In this document: positions 1 to 24,484 of the stretch, piece after piece
Layout of the letters: every line of letters starts with the position of its first letter
Position numbering within the stretch: the first letter of the stretch is position 1
Assembly (NCBI GenBank): GCA_964358055.1
Contig: CAYHNT010000003.1
Coordinates: 1-52,729, forward strand
Length of the DNA: 52,729 nucleotides
Origin: an uncultured archaeon
GTDB taxonomy: Archaea > Iainarchaeota > Iainarchaeia > Iainarchaeales > VGJJ01
Direction: 5' to 3'
Notes under the pieces: model-generated
Told to the model about the DNA's origin: nothing
Seen by the model: the letters and a program-made list of their open reading frames with translations, nothing else
Database searches by the model: none
Made by a program: the position numbers and the translations under genes

Positions 1-3000
1 TTATTGATTCTGCACCCAGCACTTCCAACACTTCCTTGAAGTTGGTTTCTTTTTTGTTCACTGTTTCGGCGTCGAACAGAATCACAATACTCTTGTAGGC
101 CTCAGGGTAAGAGGTTTTGATCTCGTTGAGCTTAGTGTTCAGGCTGCTAATGTAACTCCCTGCGTTGTCTTCGTCCACTTTGTTCATTTCTTTGAGTTTG
201 ACCAACGCTGCACTTTTGGTGGTGCTTGGAGGAGCACTCAAGATGCTTCCTCCTTTGTCTAAGAGGAATGAAAGAATAGGCTTAGAGGTGGCCACCGAGT
301 CGTCCGTAATCTTATGGGTCTCTACTAAGTGCGTGAGCATGTTCTGCGTGTTATAGGTTACACTCACGTCGGAGAATGCTCCTTTCTCTTTGTTCTTCTT
401 GATCATCTGATTGAACGTGTCTATTTTCTTCATCATCCAGATGGTAAATTGGGTGGCGTCGCAGAATTGCACATTACAATTTGGACTCTTGTCCCATGTC
501 CATTCCCACGTTATTTTATCAAATCCGTATTGAGGACGAACATCCGTGCCGGTGAAATAGCCTTCGTTCTCACAGGCTAATGGTTGGAACTGGGCAATGC
601 TGGCGACTTTTCCGGGCTTTGCTACGGTAATCTTGAAAGGCAACTCAACAGGCTGCGTGCTCACGTTAAATGCGGTGCGCGTCACGCTGAGTTCGAGTTT
701 ATTTTCAATAATGGCATCCGTTTGCAACGTGGGGGGTCGTGTAATCGTTACTTGAATGTTTCGTGCCCCTACAATTTTGAACGTGGCCGTGACATTGGGA
801 TTTTGTGCACTCGTAAAGAGGGTGGTTTCCAAATTAGTAAGCGTGTCTCGTCCTCCACAGAACTCATCCCCGACTTTCAACACTTCTCCAGGCGTTTGCG
901 TGGTGATGGTGATACTGGTGCTTCCTTTGAAGTCCTGATCGTCTAATGTAATGTCGGCGAGTGCGAGTGAGTTAATACACTGTTGGAAGTTGGTCAAGTT
1001 AGGATTACCATCCCCAATGTCCAACACTCCTGCTGCTTTGAAGAAGTTCTCGAAAATAACCGGGAAGGGCTTCTGTTGTCCTCCCCCATAGGCATCCAAG
1101 TATTTCACGGAAACCGTTCCATAGGATTCGACGCGATAATATTGTCCTTCTAGGAAGTATTTCAAATCCAATATTTGCTGTCCGATTCCCGCTTGAGGGT
1201 TGGCAAACGGATTGTTTACTTTTTTATAAGTATCAAAGTCAGGGAATATTTGGAATTCTAGTTCCTGTACCGAGTCTCTTCCTTCCCCTCTTGTTTGCAC
1301 GCCGATTAATTGGATGTCTTGCACCATACTGTTGGGCTTTGATTGAGTGGATCCCTTTTCAGTTAACGTGATTTCATCGTTCACGTTGAAGTAGGATGCA
1401 ATCGTGACGGTGTCTGCACTGGGTACTAATCGTACTCCTGCGTTGTAACATTTGTTGATGACTTTTCCTTTCACGGGCTTTTGAATTAATTCGTTGAATC
1501 GGAATTTTGTTTTGTCCAATTGAATACAATCTGCGTTGACTTCCGTGGGGCTCTTGATGAGCACGTCGATGACGGATATTTCAAGTGATGCATCCGTGCT
1601 TCCTTTGGAGCGTGCGCTTACAAACACGGGGTACTTTCCAATACGATATCCGCTTCCCACGCGAATGCGTTCGTTCTGATTGGGTTTGAGTACGAATCCT
1701 GTTTTGCTTACTTGTACGTTAGGATCGGCATCGAGTTCGATTTCGATTTCAGACTGGCAACTGTTTTCAATGCGAATCTCGGTGCTTCCGCACGCAAAGA
1801 ATGCTCCTGCTCCTTGGACGGTGTTGTAATTATCCATGTAGGGGTTGGCATAGGGCCCTTGCATGCTGGAATATCCATTCTGCTGGCTGAACTGTGCGCC
1901 TCCCTGACTGTATCCCCCAAATCCATCGTATCCACTCGCACCGTATTGTGGAGAGAAGGTTCCGTTTCCAAATTGGTAGGAGCCGAATTGTCCGGAGGTA
2001 GATGAAGGTAACAGGCTGCTTCCGCTGGGATTAGTAGTATTATTGAGCGTACTATAGCTTGGATTGTAATACGGCACTCCCGTCGGGCGATACACTTGGT
2101 TGAAATAATTACCCATCTGCCCTGCGCCTGTGTTCATAGGACATGAGTCGATTTCCAATAAGTTGGGCGTGCGGACAATGATGCATTTGCTGAGCGAATT
2201 AACTACAAGATTGACTTTCACTGTCTCTTCCACTAAATCAGGTACTCCATTATCGGTGAGGTTGGTGGCTTGGAAGATAATTTGTGGAGTTGCGAGTCCT
2301 GATTGAATAGCGTGTGGAGAAAAGCTAGTGGTGACCACGACTTCTCCTCCTGCGGGAATCTCGTTGAGGATTGTTTTGAATGCGCTTCCGAGTTCAGTAC
2401 TCTTGTCGCTTGAAACAATAGTAAATGTACCCAGTGCGTCTCCTGAAAGTTGCTTAACTTTGGAGGAGAGGTTGGAGAGTTTGATGGGCACTCCCTTCAC
2501 TGTACAGGTGTTTTTGATTTCAAACGATTGTTGTTTGGTTTCACTGGGGTCTGCGTACACGTCCCATTGTACAGGGTCGACGAGCAAACAGTCTTCGGAA
2601 TCCACTTCTCCACCAAATCCAATTTTCAAGGTAAGAGGGAGCTCGTTCACGAATGTTTTTCCACTGGTTCCGCTTTCAAGTTTAACTAATACACTTCCCT
2701 TGATTGTTTTGGCGACCAATAAGTTTTGTCCCTTCTCTGTGAGGGAGAATGCAAATGTGATGTTTTGATCGTGGTTGACGCCTAATACTTCTCCTACAAT
2801 TTCTTCATTGATCAAATCAAACTTTACAAGTTCGTCAAAGTCTCCAGAGAGGGAGATTTCCTTAATGGTCAACGGTATGCTTGCTAAATTGAGCATGTGC
2901 ACGTCTTTGGTTTTTTTCGTGGTTCCATTCACAATGAGTGTTTCGTTTAATTGGGAGGGAATGAATGCCACAATGTCCGCACCTACTTTCAAGGATAACG

Positions 3001-6000
3001 TAATGGGTTTGAATCCCTGCTTCTGCACTAATACGTTTACTACGTCATTGGCGTTGGGCTCGTTCAGCTCGAAGGGGAACACTCCTTCAATGTCGGTGAA
3101 CCCACTCGTGAGTAATGTTTCATTCAGTTTGACTTCCACGGATGCATTCTCTAATGGAATAGAATCGCTTCCCAATAGTTGGGTGACGTGGATCAATAGT
3201 TGATTGGTGAGTAAAGGCAGAATGGCCTTGGGGACGATTTCCACATCCAATACCCCTGCGGCATTCACTCGAATGAGGAGTTCGCGCGCAAACACTTCTT
3301 TTTTGTTGCTCACAATGGAGAACGAGACTTTTCCCGTTCCTTCTTTGCTCGCGTCCATGTTTACGAATCCAAATACCACGTTGTTCTTTTGTACGGTTCC
3401 AATGGGTATCTCTACTTTGTTTCCGCTCACAATGCCTGACTTTTTTGCCCCTACTGCGTTGGTGACTTCATATGCATTGAGTGTGGCGCTTCCTGAGGTA
3501 GAAGAAAGAATCAAGCTGGTGTCGGCGAATACACTATCGGAGATGCTGGTGAAGGTGAATAATATTTTGTGTTTACTACTAATGTCTACTTCGTAGTCGT
3601 CTAACAAACTAGTCTGGAGTCCGTTTCCAATGTCTTCTCCTACTATTCCTAAACAAAAGTCCTTCGTGCAAGTATGAGTGCCTGCTCCGGTGGAGTAAAG
3701 TTTGACATTGGCGTTCGCGTAAAGTCCTTGTTTCTGTGAAACACTCTCGCTTCCTCCTAATACGGCGTCAACCGGGAATCGCACGTAGCTACCTGTACGT
3801 CCCCATGCACGATAATACAAAGGTAAGTCTGCTCCTTGAATGGTGGAGTCTTTCACCGTAACATCGACTTCTACAATTGTTACGCCTTCTCTTGCGGGTC
3901 CGAATACGACGTTGGCCCACTTAGCATCGGCACTCGTTAAGTGTTGGGAGTCAATTCCCAATCCGGTGGGGGGCGTGTACGTGGTTCCTTTTTGTAACTT
4001 AGAATAGGCTCCGCGTACGTTTCGAATGAACCATCCGTCGTTCTCAATGGGGTTGGTTTGGTCCTCATTTGAGTTACCCGTACGAATGTGAATCCCTGCT
4101 TCATCGTAGTCCGTATTGGGGGGAACCATGAGTGCGAATCGGATGGTATACGTTTGTCCGGGGGATAGTCCTGATTCTTCTAGGATGGGCGTGCCATTTA
4201 CTAATATGGCGAGTGGGATGATTTCCAATCGTGGAATATCCGTGACCATTTCCACGCTCACGTTTTGCGTGATTCCTTTCTTCATTTGCAGGGGCAATGT
4301 GACATAGGGTTCGTGGTTAGGCTCGTTGACTACAAAGTACACGTATCGGTCGGCGCGCAATGTTAACTCGGCGCTTCCATCCACATTCGTGGCGACTTCA
4401 TTTCCCACGTTTGAATGAGTGACACCATCGACTGCTTGAATGGTTGCTCCTGCGAGTGGTTGTCCATCGAATCCATTCACCATGAATGCAACGGTCCCCG
4501 TTCCAATCACTAATTTGATTGTACTTTCCACGTTCTCGCGTGCCTTGACAATGAATAAGTCGGATTTGATTTGGTCGGAGAAACCCGGTTTGTACGCGGT
4601 GGCAAAATAGGTTCCTTCTTCTAAACTCGTGAATTGCACAGTCCCGCTGACTCCTGTAACTTTATTGGCTCCCACGCTCGCACCGGAGGGGGATTTCTTC
4701 AATGCAACAAATGCGTTCTCTACCGGTTGATTCAATTCGTCAATTACTTTCACGGTGACAATTTGGCTATTTTGTAACGTTGCTTTGGTTAATGCAACTT
4801 GCGTGTAGCCCGCGCTTGAAACAGTAACCGGGACTGCACTCTTGATGAGGTACGTAGGGTGATCCACGCTCACCGTTAAACTATTCGGTGATGAAACCGA
4901 GAATGTAACTTGTCCGCCTTCGTTCGTGGTTTTCGTTCCAATGATTTGGGTTCCGCGCGACAATACTACTTTGGCTTGTGCCACGGGCGCGAGGCTTCCC
5001 TCATCGACCATTTGTAAACGCACTTCTCCCACGGATGCAAGTTGTACCGTGAGTGTTTTTTCCACGGGTTGAACGTCATTCACTTCAATGGGTCCCGAGT
5101 CTAATTCTCCATACGTTCCGTCGCTTGCAACGAATACAACATACGTGTCAGGTGCGAGTCCGGTGAACTCAGCAAACCCTGCGGAGTCGGTAAACTTTTG
5201 TGCGAGCTGGTCTCCGAATTTACTTTTGAGAATAAGCGTAAGTCCCGGCACTCCATTGGCGCTTTCATTATACACCGTTACACGCAACACGGCGTTCCCG
5301 GAAGTGGGTGCATTCACGTACAATGTGGAGGTGGTTCCGTCAATGTCAATAATCGTATTTTGCAATGTTAAGGTGGGATCCAATGATTGCACGCTCAATG
5401 TTTCACATTCTGCAGGCAAGTTGAGTGTGATTTGTCCACTTGTAACGGTGCTTGTTTGTTCGAATGAATCACCGGAGCACGCAAACAATAAAGGAATGGC
5501 TTCGTCAAATGTTTGATTCGTGTTTGTTTGATACAATTGAAGTGAGAGTGATTTAGTGACTGCAACCGTGAGTGCGTTTAATGTGCGCGTGTTTTCTCCT
5601 TGGTCCACTACAATGCTTTGGTCTTCAATCGCATACGCGTCATGGTCGCCTGATATAGTTACAAGTGTTCCAATGGGTATTCCCGTGAACGTGACTTTTC
5701 CATCGTTATCCGTTAATCGTTTTTGGAGTGCTTCTCCGCTCAATCCGTTTCCGCTTAATTGTACGGGAATTCCGGCCAAGGGTGTCTGTGTTTCGTCTTG
5801 AACTAAAACAGTAAGGGAGGTTCCTCCTCCAAAAACGGCGGGCAACACAAATGCCCAGAGTGCGCCCACAACCAAAAGTGTGGCGAGCACGGCGACGGGA
5901 AAAGAGGGAATGTTTTGTGCTTCTATTTTGTCAATGACTCCATATACGGGCACATGGTGCGCGTCTAGCCAGTCCAGGAGGGAATAATAGTTGTCCTCCA

Positions 6001-6001
6001 T
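1..6001 (-). CDS. Giant N-terminally membrane-anchored surface protein, paralog of the 2572-aa ORF (partial, at least 2000 aa; C-terminus lies beyond the left window edge)
   Basis: Absent from the supplied ORF track because it is open-ended. I translated the minus strand in the frame of ATG 6001-5999 (plus-strand triplets at positions 2,5,8...). I found no tta/cta/tca triplets in that phase in any line I checked between 6001 and 2. The N-terminus MEDNYYSLLDWLDAHHVPVYGVIDKIEAQNIPSFPVAVLATLLVVGALWAFVLPAVFGG is a short head plus one TM helix. It is followed by repeated ~80-aa beta-sandwich-like modules (LTVLVQDETQTPLAGIPVQLSGNG...). The head, TM, module pattern, Y/G/Q/N-rich insert and C-x3-[FY]-CDA-x-Q motif all match ORF 8723..16441. 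Confidence 0.8.
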   Translation of the reverse strand, partial: MEDNYYSLLDWLDAHHVPVYGVIDKIEAQNIPSFPVAVLATLLVVGALWAFVLPAVFGGGTSLTVLVQDETQTPLAGIPVQLSGNGLSGEALQKRLTDNDGKVTFTGIPIGTLVTISGDHDAYAIEDQSIVVDQGENTRTLNALTVAVTKSLSLQLYQTNTNQTFDEAIPLLFACSGDSFEQTSTVTSGQITLNLPAECETLSVQSLDPTLTLQNTIIDIDGTTSTLYVNAPTSGNAVLRVTVYNESANGVPGLTLILKSKFGDQLAQKFTDSAGFAEFTGLAPDTYVVFVASDGTYGELDSGPIEVNDVQPVEKTLTVQLASVGEVRLQMVDEGSLAPVAQAKVVLSRGTQIIGTKTTNEGGQVTFSVSSPNSLTVSVDHPTYLIKSAVPVTVSSAGYTQVALTKATLQNSQIVTVKVIDELNQPVENAFVALKKSPSGASVGANKVTGVSGTVQFTSLEEGTYFATAYKPGFSDQIKSDLFIVKARENVESTIKLVIGTGTVAFMVNGFDGQPLAGATIQAVDGVTHSNVGNEVATNVDGSAELTLRADRYVYFVVNEPNHEPYVTLPLQMKKGITQNVSVEMVTDIPRLEIIPLAILVNGTPILEESGLSPGQTYTIRFALMVPPNTDYDEAGIHIRTGNSNEDQTNPIENDGWFIRNVRGAYSKLQKGTTYTPPTGLGIDSQHLTSADAKWANVVFGPAREGVTIVEVDVTVKDSTIQGADLPLYYRAWGRTGSYVRFPVDAVLGGSESVSQKQGLYANANVKLYSTGAGTHTCTKDFCLGIVGEDIGNGLQTSLLDDYEVDISSKHKILFTFTSISDSVFADTSLILSSTSGSATLNAYEVTNAVGAKKSGIVSGNKVEIPIGTVQKNNVVFGFVNMDASKEGTGKVSFSIVSNKKEVFARELLIRVNAAGVLDVEIVPKAILPLLTNQLLIHVTQLLGSDSIPLENASVEVKLNETLLTSGFTDIEGVFPFELNEPNANDVVNVLVQKQGFKPITLSLKVGADIVAFIPSQLNETLIVNGTTKKTKDVHMLNLASIPLTIKEISLSGDFDELVKFDLINEEIVGEVLGVNHDQNITFAFSLTEKGQNLLVAKTIKGSVLVKLESGTSGKTFVNELPLTLKIGFGGEVDSEDCLLVDPVQWDVYADPSETKQQSFEIKNTCTVKGVPIKLSNLSSKVKQLSGDALGTFTIVSSDKSTELGSAFKTILNEIPAGGEVVVTTSFSPHAIQSGLATPQIIFQATNLTDNGVPDLVEETVKVNLVVNSLSKCIIVRTPNLLEIDSCPMNTGAGQMGNYFNQVYRPTGVPYYNPSYSTLNNTTNPSGSSLLPSSTSGQFGSYQFGNGTFSPQYGASGYDGFGGYSQGGAQFSQQNGYSSMQGPYANPYMDNYNTVQGAGAFFACGSTEIRIENSCQSEIEIELDADPNVQVSKTGFVLKPNQNERIRVGSGYRIGKYPVFVSARSKGSTDASLEISVIDVLIKSPTEVNADCIQLDKTKFRFNELIQKPVKGKVINKCYNAGVRLVPSADTVTIASYFNVNDEITLTEKGSTQSKPNSMVQDIQLIGVQTRGEGRDSVQELEFQIFPDFDTYKKVNNPFANPQAGIGQQILDLKYFLEGQYYRVESYGTVSVKYLDAYGGGQQKPFPVIFENFFKAAGVLDIGDGNPNLTNFQQCINSLALADITLDDQDFKGSTSITITTQTPGEVLKVGDEFCGGRDTLTNLETTLFTSAQNPNVTATFKIVGARNIQVTITRPPTLQTDAIIENKLELSVTRTAFNVSTQPVELPFKITVAKPGKVASIAQFQPLACENEGYFTGTDVRPQYGFDKITWEWTWDKSPNCNVQFCDATQFTIWMMKKIDTFNQMIKKNKEKGAFSDVSVTYNTQNMLTHLVETHKITDDSVATSKPILSFLLDKGGSILSAPPSTTKSAALVKLKEMNKVDEDNAGSYISSLNTKLNEIKTSYPEAYKSIVILFDAETVNKKETNFKEVLEVLGAESI

Positions 6002-6072
6002 CCCATGGTAAAATTCCTGCCACCCCATACCCTATCACAACCTCACGTTAACTATGAAGCGCGATTAGCCCC

Positions 6073-6081
6073 TTTATATAT
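6073..6081 (-). promoter_or_regulatory. TATA-like box upstream of the partial giant gene
   Basis: TTTATATAT lies in the 131-nt gap between the stop of the 637-aa gene (6133) and ATG 6001. T-rich runs on the minus strand (6091-6125) just downstream of the 637-aa stop could act as an oligo-T terminator. Position only; no transcript data. Confidence 0.3.
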
Positions 6082-6132
6082 GTTGAGGAAAAAAAGCCGT
6101 AAAGGGGTACAAAACAAAAAAGCCCACGTCAC

Positions 6133-8046
6133 TCACGCGGAGGGAACGCATAAGGTGCAGGCGGCGTTGCACGTTTCATCCTGGAGACAACCGGTGGGGT
6201 TGGCAGTGGAATCGCAGGTTTCAGTTGAATCGAGTACTCCATTTCCGCACAAATTTTGTTCCACGCACATACTCACGTCAAATTTACACGCATTGGGTTG
6301 GCCGGGTTTGATGCAATGAAGTTCTCCTCCCGTGTAAACGGTTTCATTGTAGGGTGAAATCGTTTGGCATGTTTTTCCATCCAGTAATTCAGTTCCATTT
6401 ACTGTTCCTGAAAATTCAACATCACATTCTTCTCCCGATTCAATCACTCCATTTCCACATCCGGGAACAGGATTGTATGTTCCTTGCACGGCACACGCAG
6501 TTTGATTGCACGCACTTGCAGATGAAGCTAAATCGGGTCCGTTGATGAACGTGCTTGAAAGCGCTCCAATTGTCACGTCTTCCAAACAATAACTCACGCA
6601 CGTATTTTTGGTAAGAGAAGGAATAAATGAATCCACAATACGCACATCATAATACAATGGTGCGCGATTATCCACGACCACGTAACTCGTATTGGTTTCT
6701 TGGAAACGCAGCGTGACATTCGTGTTGACTAATTTGGAGCATTTTGCTTCCGTGTTTGGAATACCAATCAGTCCTTCGAAAATAATATCCTTGGTTGAAA
6801 AACTACTTACACTGGGTTGAATGTTTAATTGATTCGTGAGTAAAACAAAATCAGGAGACTGTGGAATGGATGCAAGTGAAATGGTCACTTGGTTATTTAC
6901 GATTCCCTTTACTAATGTGGTCAATGCATTTGCGCGCGAGGGTGCAGATGCCGGATCATATTTTGTAATTTCCGCATTGATGGTGCACAATCCTAATGAT
7001 GCGGCGGTTTGGTCACAAATTAAAGGAACGTTCCGTGGATATTCACTTTCAATGGCAGAGAATCCTGCTTGTTCGGCAGGACACAAGTTTCCTCCTTGAA
7101 TGGGCGATGGTGGAGGGTTGGGTCCCAGTTGCAATGCGGCAACCGTAAAGGGGGCGGTGCGATATCCACATACTACTTGTCCGCTTGTATCTACTCCATC
7201 GCACATTCCTACTCCCAATTCAGATAGGTGTGCGTGGAATTGAGGGGAAAGTAATCCGCCTCCTCCTGCTAATGATCCTTGGGCAATTTCGTGTGCGTAT
7301 TTCAACGCTTTGAAAATACGCATGGGCACGTAGATGCGAAATTTTCCTCGTGGAATAACCGGTTCAACGAGTTCTCTCCCGGTTGTTTCATCGTACACGT
7401 GAATCGCAGGGAGTTTTTCGTAATCCGCATCAGTAATGAGTGAAAAATCCAGGTTCACGTAAAACGTCCCCACACAATCTACAGGAGGCGTGTCTTCGTC
7501 GCATTTGACTACTTGTAAAAAATTGGTTCCGTCTCCACTCGTTTGTGAAAGTACGTTTTGGATGGCCTGTTTGATTTCGGGTTCCTGTCCTCCCTTAATT
7601 GAAATAGTGTGTCCTCCAATTTTTCGTGGATTCGATTGCACAATCACGTATAGGTTTGCTGCAATTCTTCCTGCGAGAATGCTTCCGTTTCCTTGTCCAA
7701 AAAAGAAGTTGGAGAAATCATCCTGGACTTGCTGCCATGCGAGTGATTGGGAAGAATAAGGGTAGGCGTTTCCTTGGTTTTGGGAATATTCCTCAATGGC
7801 ATTTCGTATTCCATAATTTACTACTTGCAATGCATCGGCGCGTGTTAAGTCGGCCAGGCTTTGCATGCGGGATTGGGCTTCGACTTCCAAAATAACTTGA
7901 TTGGATATGCGCTCGGAATTAATCATGGTATTCACGAGCAATCCGGCAAGGAGAATGAGCACGATGGATAGCAAAGCCGTGAATAAGGTGAATCCTTTCG
8001 CGTGCATGGGCATCTTATCCGGCTCGAGTATTAATATTCGTGGCAT
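6133..8046 (-). CDS. Large pilin-like protein: class III/prepilin-type N-terminus, large globular region, C-terminal Cys-rich CGNG repeats
   Basis: The N-terminus is MPRILILEPDKMPMHAKG|FTLFTALLSIVLILLAGLLVNTMIN (basic residue, Gly, then about 20 hydrophobic residues). The true start may be Met12 (8013) or Met14 (8007), which would give a short signal peptide. The C-terminus holds two CGNGV(I/L)(E/D)SxExCD units in a Cys-dense ~140-aa tail, resembling the Myxococcus cysteine-rich repeat / DUF4215 pattern. Confidence 0.7.
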   Translation of the reverse strand: MPRILILEPDKMPMHAKGFTLFTALLSIVLILLAGLLVNTMINSERISNQVILEVEAQSRMQSLADLTRADALQVVNYGIRNAIEEYSQNQGNAYPYSSQSLAWQQVQDDFSNFFFGQGNGSILAGRIAANLYVIVQSNPRKIGGHTISIKGGQEPEIKQAIQNVLSQTSGDGTNFLQVVKCDEDTPPVDCVGTFYVNLDFSLITDADYEKLPAIHVYDETTGRELVEPVIPRGKFRIYVPMRIFKALKYAHEIAQGSLAGGGGLLSPQFHAHLSELGVGMCDGVDTSGQVVCGYRTAPFTVAALQLGPNPPPSPIQGGNLCPAEQAGFSAIESEYPRNVPLICDQTAASLGLCTINAEITKYDPASAPSRANALTTLVKGIVNNQVTISLASIPQSPDFVLLTNQLNIQPSVSSFSTKDIIFEGLIGIPNTEAKCSKLVNTNVTLRFQETNTSYVVVDNRAPLYYDVRIVDSFIPSLTKNTCVSYCLEDVTIGALSSTFINGPDLASSASACNQTACAVQGTYNPVPGCGNGVIESGEECDVEFSGTVNGTELLDGKTCQTISPYNETVYTGGELHCIKPGQPNACKFDVSMCVEQNLCGNGVLDSTETCDSTANPTGCLQDETCNAACTLCVPSA

Positions 8047-8636: not shown

Positions 8637-8722
8637 GCCGAACACTCTTTCGTAATCTTTATACGCTTACCGACGCCAATCCGCCGAACAAAAAATAACA
8701 GTGTGAGAAGTCGTTTCTCGCA

Positions 8723-14700: not shown

Positions 14701-16441
14701 TTTTGCCCGTGTTATCGGTGGCGGTGATGGTAACGGTTTCTCCTTTGGGAATGCGTGCAGTGATTTTTCCATTCGTGGTGTTTCCGCTAAACAAGGAGGT
14801 TCCATTGGCGGTGTGGATGGTGATGTTTCCCGTGAAGGGTTGTCCTTGCGTGCTTAACAAAGTAAATTCCACCTCATCAAAATCCGCGTCGAGTGTCAAT
14901 ACCACTTTGTTGAGTCCGCTTACAATAGTAATTTCTTCTTCCGCGGAAACATTTTCTTTTTCCGCGTGCACCAATAATTTTGTTCCTACGGGCAATCGTA
15001 CGGTGAAGCTTCCCACACTATCTACGCCTCTCGGGGCAATGAGGGGGACAAATTCTTCCCCTACTAAATCATACACTTGTAAAGTAGCTTGCGTGGCGGC
15101 CTTTCCGTCTTTCTCGCTTACAAAAACGGCGAGTGTTCCTGAGTTACCGCTCGTAAATGGGACTAATCCCACATTCATTGTTTTCCCGAGTTCCCCTGCC
15201 GCTAGTTGGACCCACTCCACACTCATGCGTTTGGGATAAAAGTTTGGAGAATAAGCGAGCAAATGATACTCATTCGTTTCATTCAATCCAGCGAATTCGG
15301 ATTCTCCTGAAAAATTACTGGTCTGTGAATCCATTTTGTCAAACAGTTCATCCAACAGTGACAACTCTACTCCTTGTAGGGGTTGTTTGGATTGTTCATT
15401 TTGTGTGATCACAAACAAGGAGGTTCCGCCGAAGCTTAGGGGAGTTAAAATGGTTTCTTCGTTGTTGCGGAGTGTTTTTCCTCCGGGGAATTCCGTGTTA
15501 CTGGTGTACGACGTGTATCCTTCTTTGGATACGCTGACACGCACAACGAGTCCTTTGGTTAGGTTTTCAGTGTGTGTTCCCGAGGACGCATCTACATCCG
15601 TGATGGTTTCTCCGCTTTGTGCATTTTCTATTTTGATGTGGACGTTTTCAAGTGGGAGTTGGGTGGTCTTGTCGATGGCCTTGATGAATAACACACTGGG
15701 CCCTTCGCTTGCGCTCGCCTTGGGTGTCATTTCTTTTAGTTTGATTTCGTCTCCCGTGAATAGGATGAAATCAATCAGGTCCTCGTAATTATCCGCACGT
15801 GCAACTAAAGACAGTTCTTGATGGAGGGGCACGCTCAATAGAATAATTCCTTCTTCATTCGCGGACGCAATCACTGGACTCTCGGATCCCGTCCATGTGA
15901 CGCTTACAACGGCGTCCGAAATAATGGTTTGTGTTTCCGCATCAACGAGTTTGAGTTTTCCCACAATGGCATCGTTGCTTCCTTGAAACGATAGTCGTAA
16001 ATTTTCTTCCCCGACAAACAGTGTTCCTTCTTGTGAACCGAATCCTTGTTTGGTTGCTTGGATGGTCAGTTCTTCTTGGGGCGGAAGACTTGATAGTGTA
16101 ATGGACTGTCCATCCGACGCGGTGAGTTCGTCTAATAAGTTTCCTTTCGAATCAAATATTTGAATGGACACATCCTCGAGGGGTTGTCCTTTGTTGTCTT
16201 TCAATGATAACGTGAAGCTTGCATCCTGGGGGGCGTTGGCCATGGAGACGAATGCCATGGATCCAATGAGAATAACCAATAGTGCGGCGGTGAAGGGAAG
16301 TGCGGGTATTCCTTTTTGTTCTAAAAAATCGTTATAGCTCCAGGGGAGGCCGATTCCTTTCTCTTCAAAAAAGTCCAGTACGCCATAATACGCGTCCTCT
16401 ACTTTCACGTATACGTTCCCCAACGACTCGGTGATCCCCAT
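8723..16441 (-). CDS. Giant (2572 aa) N-terminally membrane-anchored surface protein with beta-sandwich repeats, a Gly/Ala/Cys-rich hydrophobic segment and an alpha-helical C-terminal region
   Basis: Uninterrupted 7.7-kb ORF. The head is MGITESLGNVYVKVEDAYYGVLDFFEEKGIGLPW...QKGIPALPFTAALLVILIGSMAFV (TM). About 7 carboxypeptidase-regulatory/Big-like modules follow (FTLSLKDNKGQPLEDVSIQIFDSKGN...). Then comes a long beta-rich region and a Y/G/N/Q/S-rich insert. The motif CGQAYCDAEQ and the hydrophobic ATCAAACGICSLAAGAVTAGAGWAAGATECLLSCGVGTGVGL come next. The last ~430 aa are rich in predicted helix (KAVKAADTIAKK...). Confidence 0.9.
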   Translation of the reverse strand: MGITESLGNVYVKVEDAYYGVLDFFEEKGIGLPWSYNDFLEQKGIPALPFTAALLVILIGSMAFVSMANAPQDASFTLSLKDNKGQPLEDVSIQIFDSKGNLLDELTASDGQSITLSSLPPQEELTIQATKQGFGSQEGTLFVGEENLRLSFQGSNDAIVGKLKLVDAETQTIISDAVVSVTWTGSESPVIASANEEGIILLSVPLHQELSLVARADNYEDLIDFILFTGDEIKLKEMTPKASASEGPSVLFIKAIDKTTQLPLENVHIKIENAQSGETITDVDASSGTHTENLTKGLVVRVSVSKEGYTSYTSNTEFPGGKTLRNNEETILTPLSFGGTSLFVITQNEQSKQPLQGVELSLLDELFDKMDSQTSNFSGESEFAGLNETNEYHLLAYSPNFYPKRMSVEWVQLAAGELGKTMNVGLVPFTSGNSGTLAVFVSEKDGKAATQATLQVYDLVGEEFVPLIAPRGVDSVGSFTVRLPVGTKLLVHAEKENVSAEEEITIVSGLNKVVLTLDADFDEVEFTLLSTQGQPFTGNITIHTANGTSLFSGNTTNGKITARIPKGETVTITATDNTGKIYKKTINVGTNKEHTITLDTDALPSNTPEITYEGLFSANGNPIPGISPQEDGFARFTVKWPANMQKGGVFVRVGTDNVTSIDSQFVGIFGLNGDADTINYGRTWNPLPKPGKETKDRATLGKAGSFSKWVEIVVNNPTGTQTFDVRLKAREGTPAGTIELNYRAFTQNGNTLIRTPTDSELGSASYVSTKSGLYAQSKNSSITLYEALPFCQGSICTTIHFVDEDNRLYPIGNMQALLGKKYALQVNVQTAKPLVAGQAAAGEGLVPLTTVTGGTSSSSSAIVKATTSNENPLLVFTKTETGTFGKLEDNGNKDTSISVTLSGTSTATGTDARIHFLPEEEGQTTIQLQIISNNEAWNQTLSLEIVQPKHLNVVVADFVETGEKIELFITDDEGNTVGNALISLTDAEGKLAASMKGTNTLNKGENGKYILDKSLDAGLYQLKVKLPGYADAEEGIAIGIKEPLKVDKVELSIPFGQTKVTQNVSVTNTTKHSLTNVTGELITFEGFPNEFTLEIGTIPIIAPNGKATLPITATYSGETESTATLTGSAQLKLSGNAALSFPIHGQTSVAVVYNKKLDSSCLQFNKDKLSVVVMGENQPYGNLYGGTTSTLNSNVPYYGFSQGAASDVYNSQGYNGIGYNSSGTYQYPETKRVSVKATNNCGSELTLIPGITSQDGQPVVDGFRIAAIDSSFKLAQGQEKQVDFEVSNQLFHAGFSPTGINYFATFSSAQLVATLPFEVTFWDRSRAIQTPSSIELTLIKANAKSATDKALIPITNIGAGPIYSLTATLEGEAVNDVSLKLENPPNKNTGNQSILLPGQTLYPPLSIVGESLRDESSVVTKRIIISGIVEGRRMNLKEIEVFARTGSSSCLEISAFDTPISFISSETIGSLSKNVTLSNKCLEPVRVTGVEPESIGANTFDLSPTNGNDIIEKDEEVEYNLILTKANAHKAQLSISVKGIMVLSQKTIQSNTLPVHVALGEQELEFSQASNPVQVPVCEGGTLNVRYPVQAKKNECGQAYCDAEQAAHYLSEIIEKQMVKVLQQTQSKKNDATQFTSCDISNRYCTFSQLGVSSPSVDLYLQHDSLTPNLMEYVMKSGPYPRLGSLATSLEPQLKGESADNVFASRLGTGFGNAVFLPEIRGCGVYRVAIIGGVEVVTNQLQADKITIGIKLVQDREKTAECQDKIYNAANFLPKDRSLSVGNSHQTLFGVVEYDAGLEDPAQVLAETVFGSKERATQNSGTNRMHLKIGNLSQSIVELTLDPATKGDGTKNIVTVVRQTQGRVQNEAMIEAGKIITSLGKNVNGCITEDEQTWRIYSIANVGQYTYEGCPLDNSPEGGLVVRSIQTCCMLTTKSDIQSEATYTLDPNGANALDGLNQLDLYEVNPTSAKAGAKITYNAEYPLTFNTKTQVYEKEVLLCGTADPRTQQLVHKQTVQTSTTRTLDDTKAGPLKLELRTCTFDADDAIAKAYNKGNGTWYATVDWDEDVDRKTLVQTIEEAVNGNKLGESYVSYQEQNIFASDNPVYQEKFGEKKDKAMFEFGATCAAACGICSLAAGAVTAGAGWAAGATECLLSCGVGTGVGLYENHKEGFDGVPVVEGVRDIVIEPTYGTYRDALSTVVPGSGENPEAASALIAGSTASVVKGVKVYRSTKPNDVPALPTALDVSFAAQELTSVEAAKQALQTYNARVEGILNMGLSPSDLKLVQNEVSQRFVGGGVALSDVHTTITRIDVVGSDYKIRYKVKIGNHAVANQGTLTETGQFFSTIKSKTPNVDLMKPFTQAELDALAVEMQKAKRGAEALATKYKALSSTEFAPVIKNIETTIINLDNAEQNLISHISTSINPKAIAPLNLTAFDSATAELNKAVKAADTIAKKTNPTLFQKGKNLTAKKAPQLKGLARNLVCGGLGNVAGYAMYRDEFKTEVENKIVLDAGSSNVLDAQTEELIFEKGQTYQFSVSTIQGTGKSHKIVLDIVSPSATVTPASWLDDCGKT

Positions 16442-16461
16442 AGAGTATCGAAACCTCGGGA

Positions 16462-16471
16462 ATTTATAAAT
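16462..16471 (-). promoter_or_regulatory. TATA-like box 21-30 nt upstream of the 2572-aa gene ATG (leaderless-type spacing)
   Basis: The palindromic ATTTATAAAT is the only A/T box in the 66-nt gap between 16441 and 16508. No Shine-Dalgarno-like GGAGG lies between it and the ATG. Confidence 0.35.
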
Positions 16472-16507
16472 GGCCGGGTAAATTCAAAGAGGATTCTCTC
16501 GCCCCGC

Positions 16508-17050: not shown

Positions 17051-17106
17051 TATAAACTCCCTCACGTTGGCCTACTTAACTCTGTGTGAGAGGAAAAAAA
17101 AACCTT

Positions 17107-18126: not shown

Positions 18127-18176
18127 TCGTAGTGCGCTAACACAACCTATTTTAACGCACATTCAATGATAATGGC

Positions 18177-20483: not shown

Positions 20484-20494
20484 GAGTAGAAAAA

Positions 20495-20812: not shown

Positions 20813-20861
20813 TGAGTGGAAAATAGGGGGCTATAAAAACAATAAGCCCTTTTTTCGGAAC

Positions 20862-23201
20862 ATGCCCACTGGCCGTTTTTCTTCCGATTCGAAAGTAAAG
20901 GCTCCTTCGCGAAACTCGCCTTCTATGGCCAGTCCGTCCATTGGAAAATTATACCGGGATATTCCCGTTGAAAGCGATGCGTTGTTTGTCAAAGAAGATT
21001 TTGCCGTACCCAAGGAACACTGGTATGTTCGTTTTTGTAAAAATATGTACAAGCGCTTTCCCTCCATGGGAAAGGGTGCCTTTTTTGCTCCTAAATATAA
21101 AGAGGCCGTTGCGTTCCTTGGATGGAACCTCAAGCCCGAGGAGTTCTCTTCCGCAGTAAAAGGAAGCATGATTATTGCATTGGTTGCGGGTGCCATTCTT
21201 TCCATTGTGTTGGGAATTCTTTTGTCTGGACCCATTGCTTCCATGTTTGGAATTGACGAAGGAATCGGTCCCATTCTCTATTTGTTTTTTCCCACCATCA
21301 TTGTGGGTGTAGTCATTGCCAATTACATTCAAAGTTTTCCCCTCGCGGAGGCGAAGCGTGAACAGATTCGTGCGCTTACCTACGTGCCTGAAATGATGGG
21401 CTACATGATCATGAGTATGAAACTGGTTCCTAACTTGGAAAAAGCCGTTGAGTTTGCCGCAGACCATGGGAAAGGAAGGATTGCGCAGGAGTTTAGGCGG
21501 ATCATTTGGAATACAAATCTTGGAATATACAACACCCTCGCGGAGGGATTAGATGAGCTTGCGTATTCGTGGGGAAACTTTTCATCGGAGTTCAAACAGG
21601 CGTTGATGAATGTTCGCGCATCGGTATTAGAGAATACGGAAGCGAAGCGTTATCAGTTGCTCGAAAAAACAATGGATGAAATTCTCGAGAGTGTCCAAAA
21701 CAAAATGGAACAATATGCCCGCGATCTTTCGGGGCCTAGCACCACATTGTTTTACGTGGGTGTTTTGCTTCCGCTTATTTTGATTATCATTCTTCCCGTG
21801 GGAAGTGCATTCTCAGGGAGTCCGCTTGCACAGACGGGAATATTGTTTTTTATCTATGATATTTTCCTTCCCATTTTGGTTATTTGGTTCGCGCGCAATC
21901 TGTTGTCTTCGCGTCCCCCCACTTACACGCCTCCCGAGATCTCCGATGCGCAACCCGGGTTGCCTCCTAAGAATACATTCAAGGTGGGAAAAAATGCCAT
22001 GAGCATTTGGGTCCCTGTCGTGGGAATCATTGTGCTGGGTCTTTTGATTTCAGGATATTTGCACCTTTTCGGGTTGGGAATAGGCGATCCGGAGGGGGCG
22101 AATTCATTGTATTTATTGCAGCCCGATAAGACGCTTGAAAACGTACTTTCAATTGACAACAAGCCCGTGGATTATTTTGAGCCGGGCGGGGCGCGTGAGC
22201 AGCAATTGACGGCATTAGGTTATACGGGCGATACCGTTCAAACCACCATTAATACGGAGAGAGCTCGTTTCTTTGCACAAGCAGAGAATGACATTACGCC
22301 TTATAATTTTATTTTTGGCGTCCTCATCGCATTTTCAATTGCCGGCGCCACATTCGTCGAGCTTTCGTTGCGCGAAAAAAGAAAAATTCAGCAGCGCTAC
22401 ATGCAGATGGAGTCCGAGTTCAAGGATTCATTATACGTTCTCGCCTCACGCTTAGGAGAAAATAAACCCATTGAGGATGCGCTGCGCCACACGCAGACTT
22501 TTTTGCCCAACAATATTGTTTCGCAGGAAGTGTTTGGGAAGACCGTGGATAACATCCACATGCTGGGGATGCCATTGGAAAGCGCCGTGTTCGACCCTGC
22601 GTATGGGAGCCTGAAAAATAATCCCTCTCAAATGATTGTAGGTTCCATGAAGATTGCAGTGGATTCCGTGCGCTTAGGTGTGCAGGTGGCCGCGCGGACG
22701 CTCATTTCTCTTTCGCGACAATTAGGAAACTCCGAGCGCGTGAGTAAAATGCTCACCATCCTCATCAAGGACATTACAGGGACCATGAAAACAGTGTCGG
22801 TGTACATTGCACCCGTCGTATTAGGAATTACGACGAGTCTTCAGCGTGTGGTGATCGTCACATTAGTCAGCATTAACGCCACAGGCTCTACTCAGCCTGC
22901 CGTCGATTTATCCTCGACGGGAATTCCGGGTGCCGATTCGTTTGCTAACTCGGATATTAGTTCGTTCATCAAACCGGATGTTATTGCAACGCTGGCAACT
23001 CCTGGGGAATTTTTGGTGATTGTGGCCATCTATGTGATTGAGTTAGTGTTAATCATGAATTATTTCGTTACATTAATTGAGGAAAATAATCCCCTCACGG
23101 CCAAATTGAATGCGGCGAAGAATCTTCCCGTGGCCATTATCATTTTCGTTGTCACCGTCATTATTTCCAACACCATGGTGGCGGGAAGCTTTGGGGGATA
23201 G
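20862..23201 (+). CDS. FlaJ/TadC-type pilus platform membrane protein (two T2SSF-like halves)
   Basis: 779-aa polytopic protein. It has two soluble helical segments of the T2SSF pattern, each followed by TM clusters. The first is REQIRALTYVPEMMGYMIMSMKLVPNLEKAVEFAADHGKGRIAQEFRRIIWN...LAEGLDEL. The second is MESEFKDSLYVLASRLGENKPIEDALRH.... It lies directly downstream of the ATPase. An alternative start is Met22 (20925). Confidence 0.7.
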   Translation: MPTGRFSSDSKVKAPSRNSPSMASPSIGKLYRDIPVESDALFVKEDFAVPKEHWYVRFCKNMYKRFPSMGKGAFFAPKYKEAVAFLGWNLKPEEFSSAVKGSMIIALVAGAILSIVLGILLSGPIASMFGIDEGIGPILYLFFPTIIVGVVIANYIQSFPLAEAKREQIRALTYVPEMMGYMIMSMKLVPNLEKAVEFAADHGKGRIAQEFRRIIWNTNLGIYNTLAEGLDELAYSWGNFSSEFKQALMNVRASVLENTEAKRYQLLEKTMDEILESVQNKMEQYARDLSGPSTTLFYVGVLLPLILIIILPVGSAFSGSPLAQTGILFFIYDIFLPILVIWFARNLLSSRPPTYTPPEISDAQPGLPPKNTFKVGKNAMSIWVPVVGIIVLGLLISGYLHLFGLGIGDPEGANSLYLLQPDKTLENVLSIDNKPVDYFEPGGAREQQLTALGYTGDTVQTTINTERARFFAQAENDITPYNFIFGVLIAFSIAGATFVELSLREKRKIQQRYMQMESEFKDSLYVLASRLGENKPIEDALRHTQTFLPNNIVSQEVFGKTVDNIHMLGMPLESAVFDPAYGSLKNNPSQMIVGSMKIAVDSVRLGVQVAARTLISLSRQLGNSERVSKMLTILIKDITGTMKTVSVYIAPVVLGITTSLQRVVIVTLVSINATGSTQPAVDLSSTGIPGADSFANSDISSFIKPDVIATLATPGEFLVIVAIYVIELVLIMNYFVTLIEENNPLTAKLNAAKNLPVAIIIFVVTVIISNTMVAGSFGG

Positions 23202-23207
23202 GGGGGA

Positions 23208-23693
23208 ATGATTCCAACTAAATTGAATCAAAAGGGACAGGCATTCGAAGCCTATCGTTTGCTCATCGCCATGGTGATTGCGCTTGCGGTGTTAGTGATT
23301 ATTCTTTCGGCCGTGGCGTACTTTGATGATTTGAGAAGGAAGGTGAGTCAGGACACGCTTTATTCTTCGTTCAAGAGTGCAGTGGATTCCCCTAATTCCA
23401 AAGTGGTGAAGGCCACGAGTTTAGCATTTGTTTCCGGATCAACGTATTCCCGTACGCAGTTTGCCCGGCAGACCAGCCTTGAGGATGAGTGTATTCAATT
23501 AGATGGGGATAAGAGCTCGGGCTTTGACCTGGACGACAGTGATCCCTTGCACCCTTTCATACGTGTGGCGAGTTCCATCCAGGGAAGCGTGTATTTCCAG
23601 TGCGACACCTCTAATTTCATTATTCCCCCGGGCCCCGATTCCTGCTTCGTATATTGTATCATCTCATTTGGCAAGGCCCTTACCAGCCCGTAG
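23208..23693 (+). CDS. Pilin-like protein with class III signal peptide (161 aa)
   Basis: MIPTKLNQKG|QAFEAYRLLIAMVIALAVLVIILSAVAYF has a basic residue, then Gly, then a Gln-led hydrophobic helix. The start is 6 nt after the platform gene stop and is preceded by GGGGGGA. Confidence 0.75.
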   Translation: MIPTKLNQKGQAFEAYRLLIAMVIALAVLVIILSAVAYFDDLRRKVSQDTLYSSFKSAVDSPNSKVVKATSLAFVSGSTYSRTQFARQTSLEDECIQLDGDKSSGFDLDDSDPLHPFIRVASSIQGSVYFQCDTSNFIIPPGPDSCFVYCIISFGKALTSP

Positions 23694-23758
23694 GGGCGCA
23701 CCCTCGAAAGCAACCTTTTTATAGGGCGCTGGGATTGTGTGGAGTGGTGATAACCGGT

Positions 23759-24298
23759 ATGAATTCTAGGGGACAAGCGTTTTCGACGTTTCAATTATTG
23801 ATTGCGGCCGTAGTGGCTTTGGCTATTTTGGTTTTACTATTAAACATTATTGGGAGCCTCCCCACGCCCGGAACGACCAAGCCTCAATCGGAGGCCGTGA
23901 ACTTGATCAAGAGTCAAATTAATTCACCCTCTGAATTACGTACAAGCTCGAATGCGGTTATTTTTACTCGCGAAGATTCATTGAACTCCAAGGCCGTCGC
24001 TACAGCCTCGGGCGTGTTAACCTCCAGTCAATTGTGTATTTCCATGGGTGACTTTTTCGATGAAGCAGGAAGCGATTTTGTGGACACGAATCCTTCTGTC
24101 TCCGGAGACATTATTCAATATAGTGGTTCTGGTCAGTTGCGCGTAAAGATGAGCGTCATCTGCGACACGGGAACAGAATTGTCTACTGACTTGCAGAACA
24201 ATGGAATTGATGACTCCACATGGATGCAGTCCGATAAGTGCCAGCAATTATTGGGTCTTTCCCAAACCGCCTGTGTGGTTGCCTTACGCTTTGTATAG
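23759..24298 (+). CDS. Pilin-like protein with class III signal peptide (179 aa)
   Basis: I trimmed the start to ATG 23759 (GGAGTGGTGA upstream), giving MNSRG|QAFSTFQLLIAAVVALAILVLLLNIIG. The track's upstream extension (23654) overlaps the previous gene and lacks pilin character. Confidence 0.75.
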   Translation: MNSRGQAFSTFQLLIAAVVALAILVLLLNIIGSLPTPGTTKPQSEAVNLIKSQINSPSELRTSSNAVIFTREDSLNSKAVATASGVLTSSQLCISMGDFFDEAGSDFVDTNPSVSGDIIQYSGSGQLRVKMSVICDTGTELSTDLQNNGIDDSTWMQSDKCQQLLGLSQTACVVALRFV

Positions 24299-24319
24299 CA
24301 TCCACTGGTTTTTACTTTT

Positions 24320-24484
24320 ATGAGACGTTCAATTTGGTCCGAGACCCGTGCGCAGGGGGAATTCAATTCACTCTACACCATTCTCGTGCTCATCATTGCG
24401 GCGCTATTACTCATTACGGTTATCAAGCCGTTATTTAGGGAATCCCAGAGCCTTGGAAATAAGGTCCCGATTATTGGAAAATAA
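24320..24484 (+). CDS. Untracked 54-aa mini-ORF with a class III signal-peptide-like N-terminus (possible minor pilin)
   Basis: It falls below the 60-aa cut-off of the ORF track. My translation is MRRSIWSETRAQGEFNSLYTILVLIIAALLLITVIKPLFRESQSLGNKVPIIGK, with stop TAA at 24482-24484. The AQG|EF... plus hydrophobic helix resembles the short class III signal-peptide proteins. Position -2 is Gln rather than Lys/Arg, so this is less certain. Confidence 0.45.
   Translation: MRRSIWSETRAQGEFNSLYTILVLIIAALLLITVIKPLFRESQSLGNKVPIIGK

Follow-up and report, generated by a model that had tools for sequence, protein, structure and literature searches.

The locus described here raises the question of whether a pilus-type motor, an archaeosortase-like gene, and several giant membrane-anchored proteins encoded side by side form one apparatus or merely share a neighborhood. 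The locus is an island at positions 1-24484 of a 52,729-nt stretch of contig CAYHNT010000003.1 (the whole stretch is called the window below) from an uncultured Iainarchaeum-type DPANN archaeon, and it takes up 46.4% of the window, in line with the value of about 46% given in an earlier note on this DNA. We found that most of the gene set recurs in dozens of divergent DPANN genomes, belonging to Iainarchaeota, Micrarchaeota, and unassigned lineages; the finding is DPANN-wide and no peculiarity of one contig. We read the island as a variant type IV filament system with two unannotated protein families, the giants bearing a distinctive N-terminal head and a pilin-headed protein (p637), and with a probable new archaeosortase subfamily, and regard it as a strong candidate for a cell-surface or cell-contact machine. 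That it represents one conserved multi-operon DPANN surface apparatus built around a Tad/Epd-like type IV filament machine is a reading to which we give an even chance.

The genes listed in the earlier note were all present in the open reading frame (ORF) map, with minor start-codon corrections only. The two arms of the island and the region separating them are as follows (a slash marks the proposed cleavage site of a head).

2..6028, minus strand: giantB, a B-type giant (N-terminal 2,009 aa; the gene is open past the left edge of the window)
6133..8046, minus strand: p637, a pilin-headed protein with the class III-like head (MPM)HAKG/FTLFTALLS
8723..16441, minus strand: giantA, an A-type giant of 2,572 aa
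16508..17050, minus strand: exosortase/archaeosortase-superfamily enzyme, 180 aa from ATG
17051..17106, no strand: divergent intergenic region of 56 bp between the sortase-like gene and the plus arm
17086 (GTG) or 17107 (ATG)..18126, plus strand: polytopic membrane protein, 346 aa
18177..20483, plus strand: TadA/CpaF/FlaI-like secretion ATPase, 768 aa
20495..20812, plus strand: basic protein, 105 aa, pI 10.7
20862..23201, plus strand: TadC/FlaJ-like platform, 779 aa, about 10 hydrophobic segments
23208..23693, plus strand: pilin-like protein, 161 aa, head NQKG/QAFEAYRLLIAMV
23759..24298, plus strand: pilin-like protein, 179 aa, head NSRG/QAFSTFQLLIAAV
24320..24484, plus strand: Flp-sized pilin candidate, 54 aa, head RAQG/EFNSLY

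The recurrence of this arrangement was determined in three sets of genomic contexts, obtained from protein searches (n = 6), from GTDB species representatives (14 loci), and from a metagenome scan on the A-type head. In all six contexts of sortase-like homologues a giant followed the sortase-like gene, the ATPase or a 340-aa membrane protein lay divergently opposite wherever the contig reached, and a protein of about 600 aa came after the giant where the contig continued. The same held for the species-level GTDB loci, 14 of 14 of which had the sortase-like gene followed by the giantA orthologue wherever the contig continued and the ATPase on the other side of the sortase-like gene wherever the upstream flank was present. 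The metagenome scan returned 76 loci, from which iterative classification and dereplication at 90% identity left 60 distinct ones. Among those with at least 3 kb upstream of giantA (n = 35), the sortase-like gene was found in 33, the ATPase in 31, the platform in 15, and pilins in 11; with at least 5 kb upstream (n = 27), the corresponding counts were 26, 25, 15, and 11. The earlier note had made its proposal depend on a recurrent linkage of giant and sortase-like genes to pilus genes, and these counts answer in its favor.

The linkage extends to distant relatives. The crude median pairwise identity of the first 150 aa of the giants in the metagenome-scan loci was 26%, and head-bearing giants in other lineages, including a Micrarchaeota genome, were followed by a p637-like protein (490-610 aa), a giantB, and further giants, in that order. 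The ATPase was encoded on the strand opposite the sortase-like gene in 36 of 36 dereplicated loci in which both were detected. Outside this set stands one locus (L068) in which the ATPase, the platform, two pilins, the sortase, giantA, and p637 are all co-directional; since these genes stay together there on one strand, the linkage survives rearrangement. In five further loci (L049, L056, L057, L061, and L071) the ATPase alone lies beside the sortase-like gene, giantA, and p637, with neither platform nor pilins. The ATPase, the sortase-like gene, and the array of giantA, p637, and giantB stay together across deep divergence, accompanied by platform and pilin genes in about half of the loci. 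As a separate observation, unrelated genes, belonging to clusters of about 636 and about 255 aa, converge on the ATPase in the same five loci.

The ATPase matched Pfam T2SSE with E = 1.4e-18 (67 bits, cut-off 24.9), scored equally with FlaI and TadA-type models (E = 1e-40), and had afGspE (2oap; E = 3e-30), CpaF, and FlaI as its nearest solved structures by sequence. Its Walker A and His-box motifs, GSRGSGKTS and GTIHADSA, were kept across the orthologues, and the protein is in these respects the T2SSE-family (GspE/FlaI/TadA) ATPase expected of a type IV filament system. An N-terminal extension of about 290 aa (18177-19050), carrying CxxC...CxxH and kept in 22 orthologues, matched no Pfam family and probably forms a Zn-ribbon-like domain. 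The 779-aa protein scored below the Pfam cut-off for T2SSF (19.4 bits, E = 1.1e-3; cut-off 25.2), and a sequence search of the PDB found no relative of it. A T2SSF match was obtained for seven of nine orthologues (best E = 3.4e-5), and its position, size, and about 10 hydrophobic segments agree with a T2SSF-family platform; we accept it as a putative divergent platform of the TadC/FlaJ type.

Two further products of the plus arm, the 105-aa basic protein and the 346-aa polytopic protein (about 8 hydrophobic segments), had no family match among the profile libraries scanned. The place of the former is kept, with a gene for 107-119 aa at the same spot in orthologous loci; the latter is confined to an Iainarchaeal subset of loci, is absent from L001, L002, L021, and L022, and is not part of the core gene set. 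The 346-aa protein was also considered as the missing prepilin peptidase and rejected, having no GxGD motif and no family match and being absent from many loci. No prepilin peptidase (Peptidase_A24: PibD, FlaK, EppA, TadV) was found among the window ORFs scanned, as the earlier note had said, and an unannotated 351-aa ORF (26076..27131), with a single hydrophobic segment and no GxGD motif, is no candidate for one. In archaea the gene for this peptidase often lies elsewhere in the genome than the pilus locus. Taken as a whole, the plus arm probably belongs to the Tad/Epd-like type IV filament superfamily.

The three small pilin-like proteins and p637 begin with a short leader whose last two residues are [KR]G or QG; about 20 hydrophobic residues come next, and the head motifs are kept in their orthologues as [KR]G/Q[AS]F..., AQG/EFNSLY, and [KR][GA]/FTL[FY]TALLS. 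In the 161-aa family, to which the 179-aa protein belongs as a paralogue (same cluster), the G, Q, and F are invariant, and the Q at +1 of both proteins recalls what we take to be a trait of EppA-dependent archaeal pilins. The 54-aa candidate, kept in 7 loci, would after the proposed cleavage have a mature length of 41 aa, with the size and layout of a Flp pilin. None of the pilin heads matched Pfam Class_IIIsignal, Flp_Fap, the NCBIfam pilin models, or the PDB, and what speaks for their putative class III assignment is the pattern, the position, and the conservation of the motifs. When all 277 stop-defined ORFs of the window were screened with a crude class III-like rule, three of the four heads of the island were picked out, along with one spurious internal start in another place. 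The class III signal peptides suggested by the earlier note are thus kept in orthologue alignments but go unrecognized by curated models. A head of textbook class III type, RAQG/TIEYLVIIAVVVV, was also seen in 885- and 1,054-aa proteins encoded between the sortase-like gene and giantA in another locus (L093, 4015-9863, plus strand).

p637 has 41 homologues, from Diapherotrites, Iainarchaeum, and Micrarchaeota, all of them unnamed or annotated as hypothetical. Its true start is probably M12 or M14 (8013 or 8007), giving the leader MPMHAKG or MHAKG, because a TATA-like element, AATATTAATA, lies about 25 nt upstream. The AlphaFold2 (AF2) model of the protein (predicted local distance difference test [pLDDT], 82; predicted template-modeling score [pTM], 0.69) has a helix of about 70 residues (about 20-89) that starts from F19, right after the KG, and leads into an alpha/beta globular body; the Cys-rich CGNG..E.GEECD repeats at the C terminus were modeled with low confidence. 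No PDB fold matched the model at E<=1e-3, and sequence searches of the PDB likewise gave nothing significant. The prepilin-like head that the earlier note had seen on this 637-aa protein is retained in its orthologues, and the model helix begins at the predicted site, while curated models give no match. In Iainarchaeal, Micrarchaeal, and unassigned loci alike, p637 is placed between two giants, and this embedded position, together with its class III-like head, makes it the gene that ties both arms together.

The giants carry Pfam domains of extracytoplasmic beta-sandwich families (CarboxypepD_reg, SpaA, SdrD_B, Big_1, and bMG3) and one hydrophobic segment each, near residue 45-65. giantA consists, in order, of a 45-aa acidic head, the motif IPALPF, one transmembrane (TM) segment (about 47-65), beta-sandwich arrays, a conserved Cys/Gly/Ala hydrophobic helical hairpin (about 2103-2166), a variable coiled coil, and a C-terminal beta domain of about 90 aa. 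giantB has the head MGWQEFYHGMEDNYYSLLDWLDAHHVPVYGVIDKIEAQNIPSFP, then the TM segment, and its domain matches are CarboxypepD_reg (five times), SdrD_B, SpaA, bMG3, and Big_1. It is the second giant paralogue of at least 2000 aa reported in the earlier note, measuring 2,009 aa to the window edge, and its closest full-length relative found is a B-type protein of 2,552 aa (P0049). Three or four head-bearing giants stand in a row in four other loci (L025, L028, L083, and L089), and for this reason the island probably continues past the left edge of the window.

The AF2 model of giantA residues 1400-2572 (pLDDT, 74) began with mixed beta-sandwich domains; the conserved Cys/Gly/Ala segment then folded into a helical hairpin, after which came a helical region, variable in length and modeled with low confidence, and finally a small beta domain. 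Foldseek returned for it only generic tandem Ig/MG/ASH beta-sandwich arrays, with TM-scores around 0.1, and likenesses to complement MG, PrgB, and AgI/II domains were at the domain level only. The giants have the tandem beta-sandwich domains and the length of more than 2,000 aa that mark giant adhesins, and they are predicted to be exposed at the surface. The density of N-glycosylation sequons did not separate them from cytoplasmic proteins. Two other assignments were dropped. The giants do not appear to be the S-layer protein, having no S-layer family match (e.g., PF05123 S_layer_N), and a different protein fills that role in Micrarchaeota; a lytic-transglycosylase-like C-terminal domain, seen by eye in some A-type giants, was not supported by Pfam.

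The head that unites the giants reads M..l...Y.k.EDkYY..LDwLd.KGiPvY..vD.iE.k(G/N)IP[SA]FP, with the TM segment directly after it, and has no Pfam, NCBIfam, or PDB relative. A word-indexed protein search with an 80-aa head query returned two fragments only. When 1.84 billion representative proteins were searched exhaustively with a profile of the head, it was present in 594 protein clusters at E<=1e-3 and in 166 at E<=1e-10; among the matches listed, it lay at or within about 50 residues of the predicted N terminus, at residue 1 in most. Full-length-looking head-bearing proteins were mostly 2,400-3,100 aa long, some reaching 4,511 aa, and one match was named Candidatus Micrarchaeota. The long top matches fell into two orthologous groups, 48 of A-type and 33 of B-type. 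Across 38 A-type representatives, which are collinear over their whole length, the identity to the window giant was 51% in the head and 25-35% elsewhere.

The sortase-like protein, described as exosortase/archaeosortase-like in the earlier note, scored 48.2 bits against TIGR04178 (cut-off 23), and Cys83, Arg125, and His145 were invariant in its 19 homologues (167-183 aa), so the superfamily assignment made there stands. It stayed below the cut-off of every named subfamily model (ArtA-H, XrtX, pacearchaeosortase, and others), with 48.1 bits against a cut-off of 170 for XrtX, 45.9 against 125 for ArtD, and 21.4 against 80 for pacearchaeosortase. By these scores it is a member of the superfamily that falls into no named subfamily, and we propose it as a new archaeosortase subfamily. 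The protein has 4 hydrophobic segments, with a basic N terminus, TM2-TM3 loop, and C terminus; the enzyme looks active, and by the positive-inside rule the catalytic Cys83, Arg125, and His145 would lie at the outer membrane face. It was on this ground rejected as a stand-in prepilin peptidase, prepilin cleavage occurring at the cytoplasmic face.

As to substrates of this enzyme, no C-terminal TM segment or tripartite sorting signal was found on giantA, on the A-type and B-type giants, or on p637, and the giants were dropped as classical sortase substrates, neither type having a C-terminal TM segment. The idea that an archaeosortase acts on the giants is thus deprived of the C-terminal signal that defines such substrates. 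In the window, the only conventional-looking candidate substrate is the following protein, encoded outside the island.

36035..41632, minus strand: CoaZ protein, 1,865 aa, secreted, with a C-terminal TM segment

The CoaZ protein has a Sec-type N terminus, a MopE-like Cys motif, and a Gly/Ser run of about 30 residues, and it contains the "choice-of-anchor Z" repeat five times (NCBIfam CoaZ_rpt_PGGG, E = 3e-28). Other secreted proteins with C-terminal TM segments adjoin the sortase gene in L027, L028, and L037; no common motif was recognizable among them and the CoaZ protein. Another candidate substrate site is the Pro-containing segment just outside the TM segment of the giants (NAPQD, AQPID, or LLPG). 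Two side observations concern the neighborhood of the sortase-like gene. A gene for 246-248 aa on the opposite strand separates it from giantA in the Iainarchaeal loci L003 (8553-9293) and L007 (741-1487), that of L007 being a Peptidase_S51. In L027, which represents one divergent lineage, it is preceded directly (7365-8640, plus strand) by genes for three tandem paralogous cytoplasmic proteins of 107-142 aa, with N termini of the form MAKEEI.KE.M.L...NQ, plus a 135-aa TM and zinc-ribbon protein.

The earlier note had regarded the island as one co-regulated unit read from the 56-bp region. TATA boxes were read directly from the sequence, and two of them precede the giant genes.

6073..6081, minus strand: TATA-like element upstream of giantB, TTTATATAT / ATATATAAA, 45-53 nt before ATG
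16462..16470, minus strand: TATA box of giantA, TTTATAAAT, about 27 nt before ATG

The giantA box is kept as (C/G)ATTTATA(T/A)ATTC in most orthologous Iainarchaeal loci (L002-L024). The exact motif TTTATAWAT occurs three times in the window, twice as the two strands of the giantA box and once before giantB. p637, the platform gene, and the gene for the 179-aa pilin each have a TATA-like element before them as well, and TTATAAAC can be read about 30 nt upstream of GTG 17086 within the 56-bp region. Since a strong consensus TATA box lies before the giants, 30-45 nt upstream, the giant genes seem to have short 5' leaders and to be transcribed independently; by the same reading, the minus arm is not a single transcription unit starting from the 56-bp region. 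The claim of one co-regulated unit is thus unsupported; co-regulation is possible but is not indicated by the promoter elements.

If the island is one apparatus, it could work as follows. A prepilin peptidase encoded elsewhere would cleave the pilin heads after [KR]G, and the motor would polymerize the 54-aa pilin into a filament primed by the 161- and 179-aa proteins as minor pilins, while p637 would be a minor pilin of large size or a subunit at the tip, in the manner of TadG or PilY1. The giants would have their N terminus in the cytoplasm and about 2,450 aa on the outer side; the head would dock to the machine from the cytoplasm, at the ATPase N-domain or at the platform, and the resulting fibers, tens of nanometers long, would stand beside the filament or be loaded onto it. 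At the outer face, the sortase-like enzyme would trim or re-anchor either the juxtamembrane segment of the giants or secreted proteins with an anchor at the C terminus, for example the CoaZ protein. The whole would likely serve for attachment to, or contact with, other cells or surfaces, and it may have to do with host attachment and episymbiosis.

Several points weigh against this reading. A surface or contact function is plausible but is deduced from gene context. Curated hidden Markov models (HMMs) fail to recognize the pilins, and the prepilin peptidase is missing from the window and from most loci, one possible GSGD polytopic ORF in L075 being the exception among the related loci. The giants lack a C-terminal sorting signal, which leaves the sortase link unexplained, and their N-in topology appears insecure, the head being acidic (pI 4.1) and the charges around the TM segment balanced. 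The separate TATA boxes would speak against transcription as one unit. In at least three loci the linkage is partly broken: L073 consists of giants only and has neither a sortase-like gene upstream of giantA nor an ATPase within 10 kb; in L079 the sortase-like gene is missing from about 5 kb upstream of giantA; and in L027, which shares its contig with L039, the sortase-like gene is accompanied by large pilin-headed proteins but by no ATPase within 10 kb. The Iainarchaeal linkage, finally, could in part be inherited gene order, as the aminopeptidase-like gene and the ABC-F gene beyond the pilins are also syntenic there.

A more specific version of the single-apparatus reading makes the giants clients of the motor. 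Their head would dock on the Zn-ribbon N-domain of the ATPase or on the platform, the motor would load, erect, or extrude the fibers of about 2,500 aa, and the archaeosortase-like enzyme would act on a signal that is not C-terminal. We put this forward tentatively, as a possibility with the balance against it. If true, it would amount to a new class of ATP-driven system for the deployment of giant proteins, widespread in DPANN, and to candidate hardware of symbiont-host contact.

The inherited gene order just mentioned leads to an unlikely alternative, in which the island consists of two independent neighbors, an ordinary adhesion pilus on one side and a sortase module with its own substrates plus large envelope proteins on the other, kept together by inherited order in small, slowly rearranging genomes. 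The synteny of housekeeping genes (aminopeptidase-like and ABC-F) in the Iainarchaeal loci, the separate TATA box of each giant (that of giantA being kept across orthologous loci), the locus with giants but no ATPase or sortase, and the lack of platform or pilin genes in about half of those loci that have 5 kb or more upstream of giantA all fit two neighbors. As unrelated genes are syntenic among close Iainarchaeal relatives, it is mainly the divergent loci and L068 that carry the argument. Against two neighbors stand these observations: the linkage persists at about 26% crude median identity of the giants and across at least two DPANN phyla, it survives the changed order and strand of L068, the pilin-headed p637 lies inside the giant array in every lineage examined, and the ATPase remains beside the sortase-like gene and giantA where the platform has moved away.

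Other details of the giants bear on a further alternative, namely a type II secretion-like or "deployment" machine, in which a short pseudopilus would mainly extract the N-terminal helices of the giants from the membrane and push the giants out or release them at the surface, perhaps together with Cys-rich secreted proteins; the class III-type leader would then be unusually long, consisting of the head plus [KR]G-IP..FP, and the releasing protease would be the sortase-like enzyme. A-type giants do have [KR]G right before the hydrophobic segment, in prepilin-like fashion, but B-type giants mostly have N, and not G, A, or S, at -1. That the head is the best-conserved part of the giant, that a conserved Pro-containing motif follows just outside the TM segment, and that the ATPase is linked more tightly to the giants than to the pilins would suit such a machine; yet a conserved leader of 45 aa is without precedent, the loci encode no peptidase, and the Pro at +2 and +5 is foreign to class III signals. 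We know of no class III signal (by the FlaFind rules) with Pro at these two positions. On balance we consider this machine rather improbable.

Last, the giants might be a constitutive envelope scaffold (pseudoperiplasm-spanning spacers or stalks, or a fibrous coat) and not adhesins, with the pilus genes and the sortase-like enzyme serving envelope assembly, which we hold to be quite improbable, given that the abundant S-layer protein of Micrarchaeota is a different, 101-kDa protein (bioRxiv 10.1101/2021.04.28.441871) and that certain family members end in add-ons that vary from one to another, a trait seen more often in interaction proteins, even though the giants are collinear over their full length and, among Iainarchaeal orthologues, more alike (giantA, 57-63% over residues 1-2250) than the sortase-like enzyme (47-56%), have strong consensus TATA boxes, occur as three or four paralogues in some loci, and would make up roughly 3-4% of a genome of about 1 Mb, as estimated from gene sizes. 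The high collinear conservation would indeed fit a structural role better than a fast-evolving adhesin. An example of the add-ons is the CAP domain (E = 2e-14) at the C terminus of a 3,046-aa B-type giant from Candidatus Micrarchaeota (L026, 10001-19141; GCA_043803815.1).

Returning to the reading of the island as one apparatus around a Tad/Epd-like machine, we compared it with known systems. Bacterial Tad (Flp) pili are thought to derive from archaeal Epd-like pili (Denise et al. 2019, PMC6668835; Makarova et al. 2016, PMC4858521). The island resembles Tad/Epd loci in the best scores of its ATPase (TadA-/FlaI-type models and the CpaF and afGspE structures), its putative polytopic T2SSF-type platform, its Flp-sized 54-aa pilin candidate with G at -1 and an aromatic residue at +6, its two paralogous pilin-like proteins of about 160-180 aa with Q at +1, and its large pilin-headed p637, comparable to TadG. 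It differs from them in the 768-aa size of the ATPase with its conserved 290-aa N-terminal extension, in having the platform as a single 779-aa protein, in lacking a prepilin peptidase in the locus, in pilins that the Flp_Fap and Class_IIIsignal models do not recognize, and in its tight linkage both to a gene of archaeosortase type and to giants of about 2,500 aa, neither of which belongs to a Tad or Epd locus described so far.

Among archaeosortase/exosortase sorting systems are ArtA, which goes with PGF-CTERM, and several small types, namely ArtD, ArtE, ArtF, and XrtX (Haft et al. 2012, as cited in PMC8416519). The island enzyme shares with them the superfamily signature and the invariant Cys/Arg/His, has the small 4-TM form of ArtD and XrtX, and is encoded beside very large surface proteins; it is unlike them in scoring far below every named subfamily cut-off and in having neighbors (giantA, giantB, and p637) without the C-terminal motif, TM segment, and basic tail.

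Large DUF2341-containing proteins are predicted in the Methanococcus Epd loci (PMC4858521). Like PilY1 and these DUF2341 pilus adhesins, p637 is a large secreted protein in a type IV pilus locus and fits a predicted role in decorating the filament; unlike them, it has no DUF2341, and its model has no PDB fold match. The giants are five times larger than such proteins and carry a unique head and signal-anchor in place of a class III or Sec signal. Other genome-reduced organisms have giants of their own. SPEARE proteins are said to be the giant surface proteins of Nanohaloarchaeota. Giant membrane proteins also occur in Vampirococcus, a bacterium of the Candidate Phyla Radiation (CPR; PMC8080830). 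The likeness lies in several-thousand-residue adhesion-type proteins alongside type IV pili in genome-reduced organisms. Those giants are lineage specific and have not been reported to form a conserved operon together with genes for a pilus ATPase and an enzyme of sortase type, whereas the island giants are collinear and conserved across phyla; we claim no homology between the two.

A related description in the literature is that of DPANN pilus "dark-matter" islands with FlaI, TadC, "specific surface proteins," and unannotated signal-peptide proteins read as divergent pilins (Makarova, Wolf, and Koonin 2019, PMC6393860). Its text does not mention an archaeosortase-like gene, the head family, or arrays of paralogues of about 2,500 aa, and neither does a 2026 preprint with a census of archaeal type IV filaments (10.64898/2026.04.22.720090). 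The word "sortase" does not occur in the two archaeal pilus censuses (PMC4858521; 10.64898/2026.04.22.720090). By term search, the gene set did not turn up in the pilus surveys, Micrarchaeota S-layer and cryo-electron tomography (cryo-ET) studies, and a paper on a Thermococcales Ig-protein module, while a description in a subscription journal is possible. The gene set appears undescribed in these surveys, in keeping with the earlier note, whose author knew of no described system with this exact set.

DPANN archaea account for much of the diversity of archaea, and the majority are believed to live in attachment to other cells, but their contact molecules have scarcely been identified; in cryo-ET of a Micrarchaeon with its host, proteins could not be assigned to the structures seen (PMC11329633). 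The island provides a searchable gene set, consisting of a 770-aa ATPase, a putative new archaeosortase subfamily, a pilin-headed protein of about 500-640 aa, and two groups of giants of about 2,500 aa with an unannotated head. It offers targets for proteomics, for antibody or cryo-ET labeling in cultivated Micrarchaeota, and for annotation models. It also poses two questions: what role an exosortase-family enzyme plays when its conserved partners have no C-terminal sorting signal, and why a short cytoplasmic head is the best-conserved part of a giant extracellular protein.

One more feature lies within the minus arm, between p637 and giantA.

8047..8645, minus strand: Bro-N-like remnant in two overlapping frames (Bro-N E = 1.8e-5, 25.7 bits against a cut-off of 25.6)

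This is the decayed Bro-N-like gene of the earlier note. The gap between giantA and p637 is about 55 bp in orthologous loci, and the gene is an insertion specific to the window; it resembles a decayed insertion of mobile-element origin. Elsewhere the window holds archaeal genes for housekeeping and for various other functions, among them GatD, ABC-F, peroxiredoxin, and an Fe-S assembly protein. A DUF2283 and DUF4258 gene pair (24485-24995, minus strand), inserted immediately behind the gene for the 54-aa pilin, is absent in orthologous loci and likely a toxin-antitoxin-type module. A 379-aa cytoplasmic protein (24919-26058, plus strand), with a likeness to M29-type aminopeptidases by eye and no Pfam match, and the ABC-F ATPase (28769-30334, plus strand) are syntenic with the island in L001, L002, L011, L020, and L021, which indicates that general gene order is kept in close relatives.

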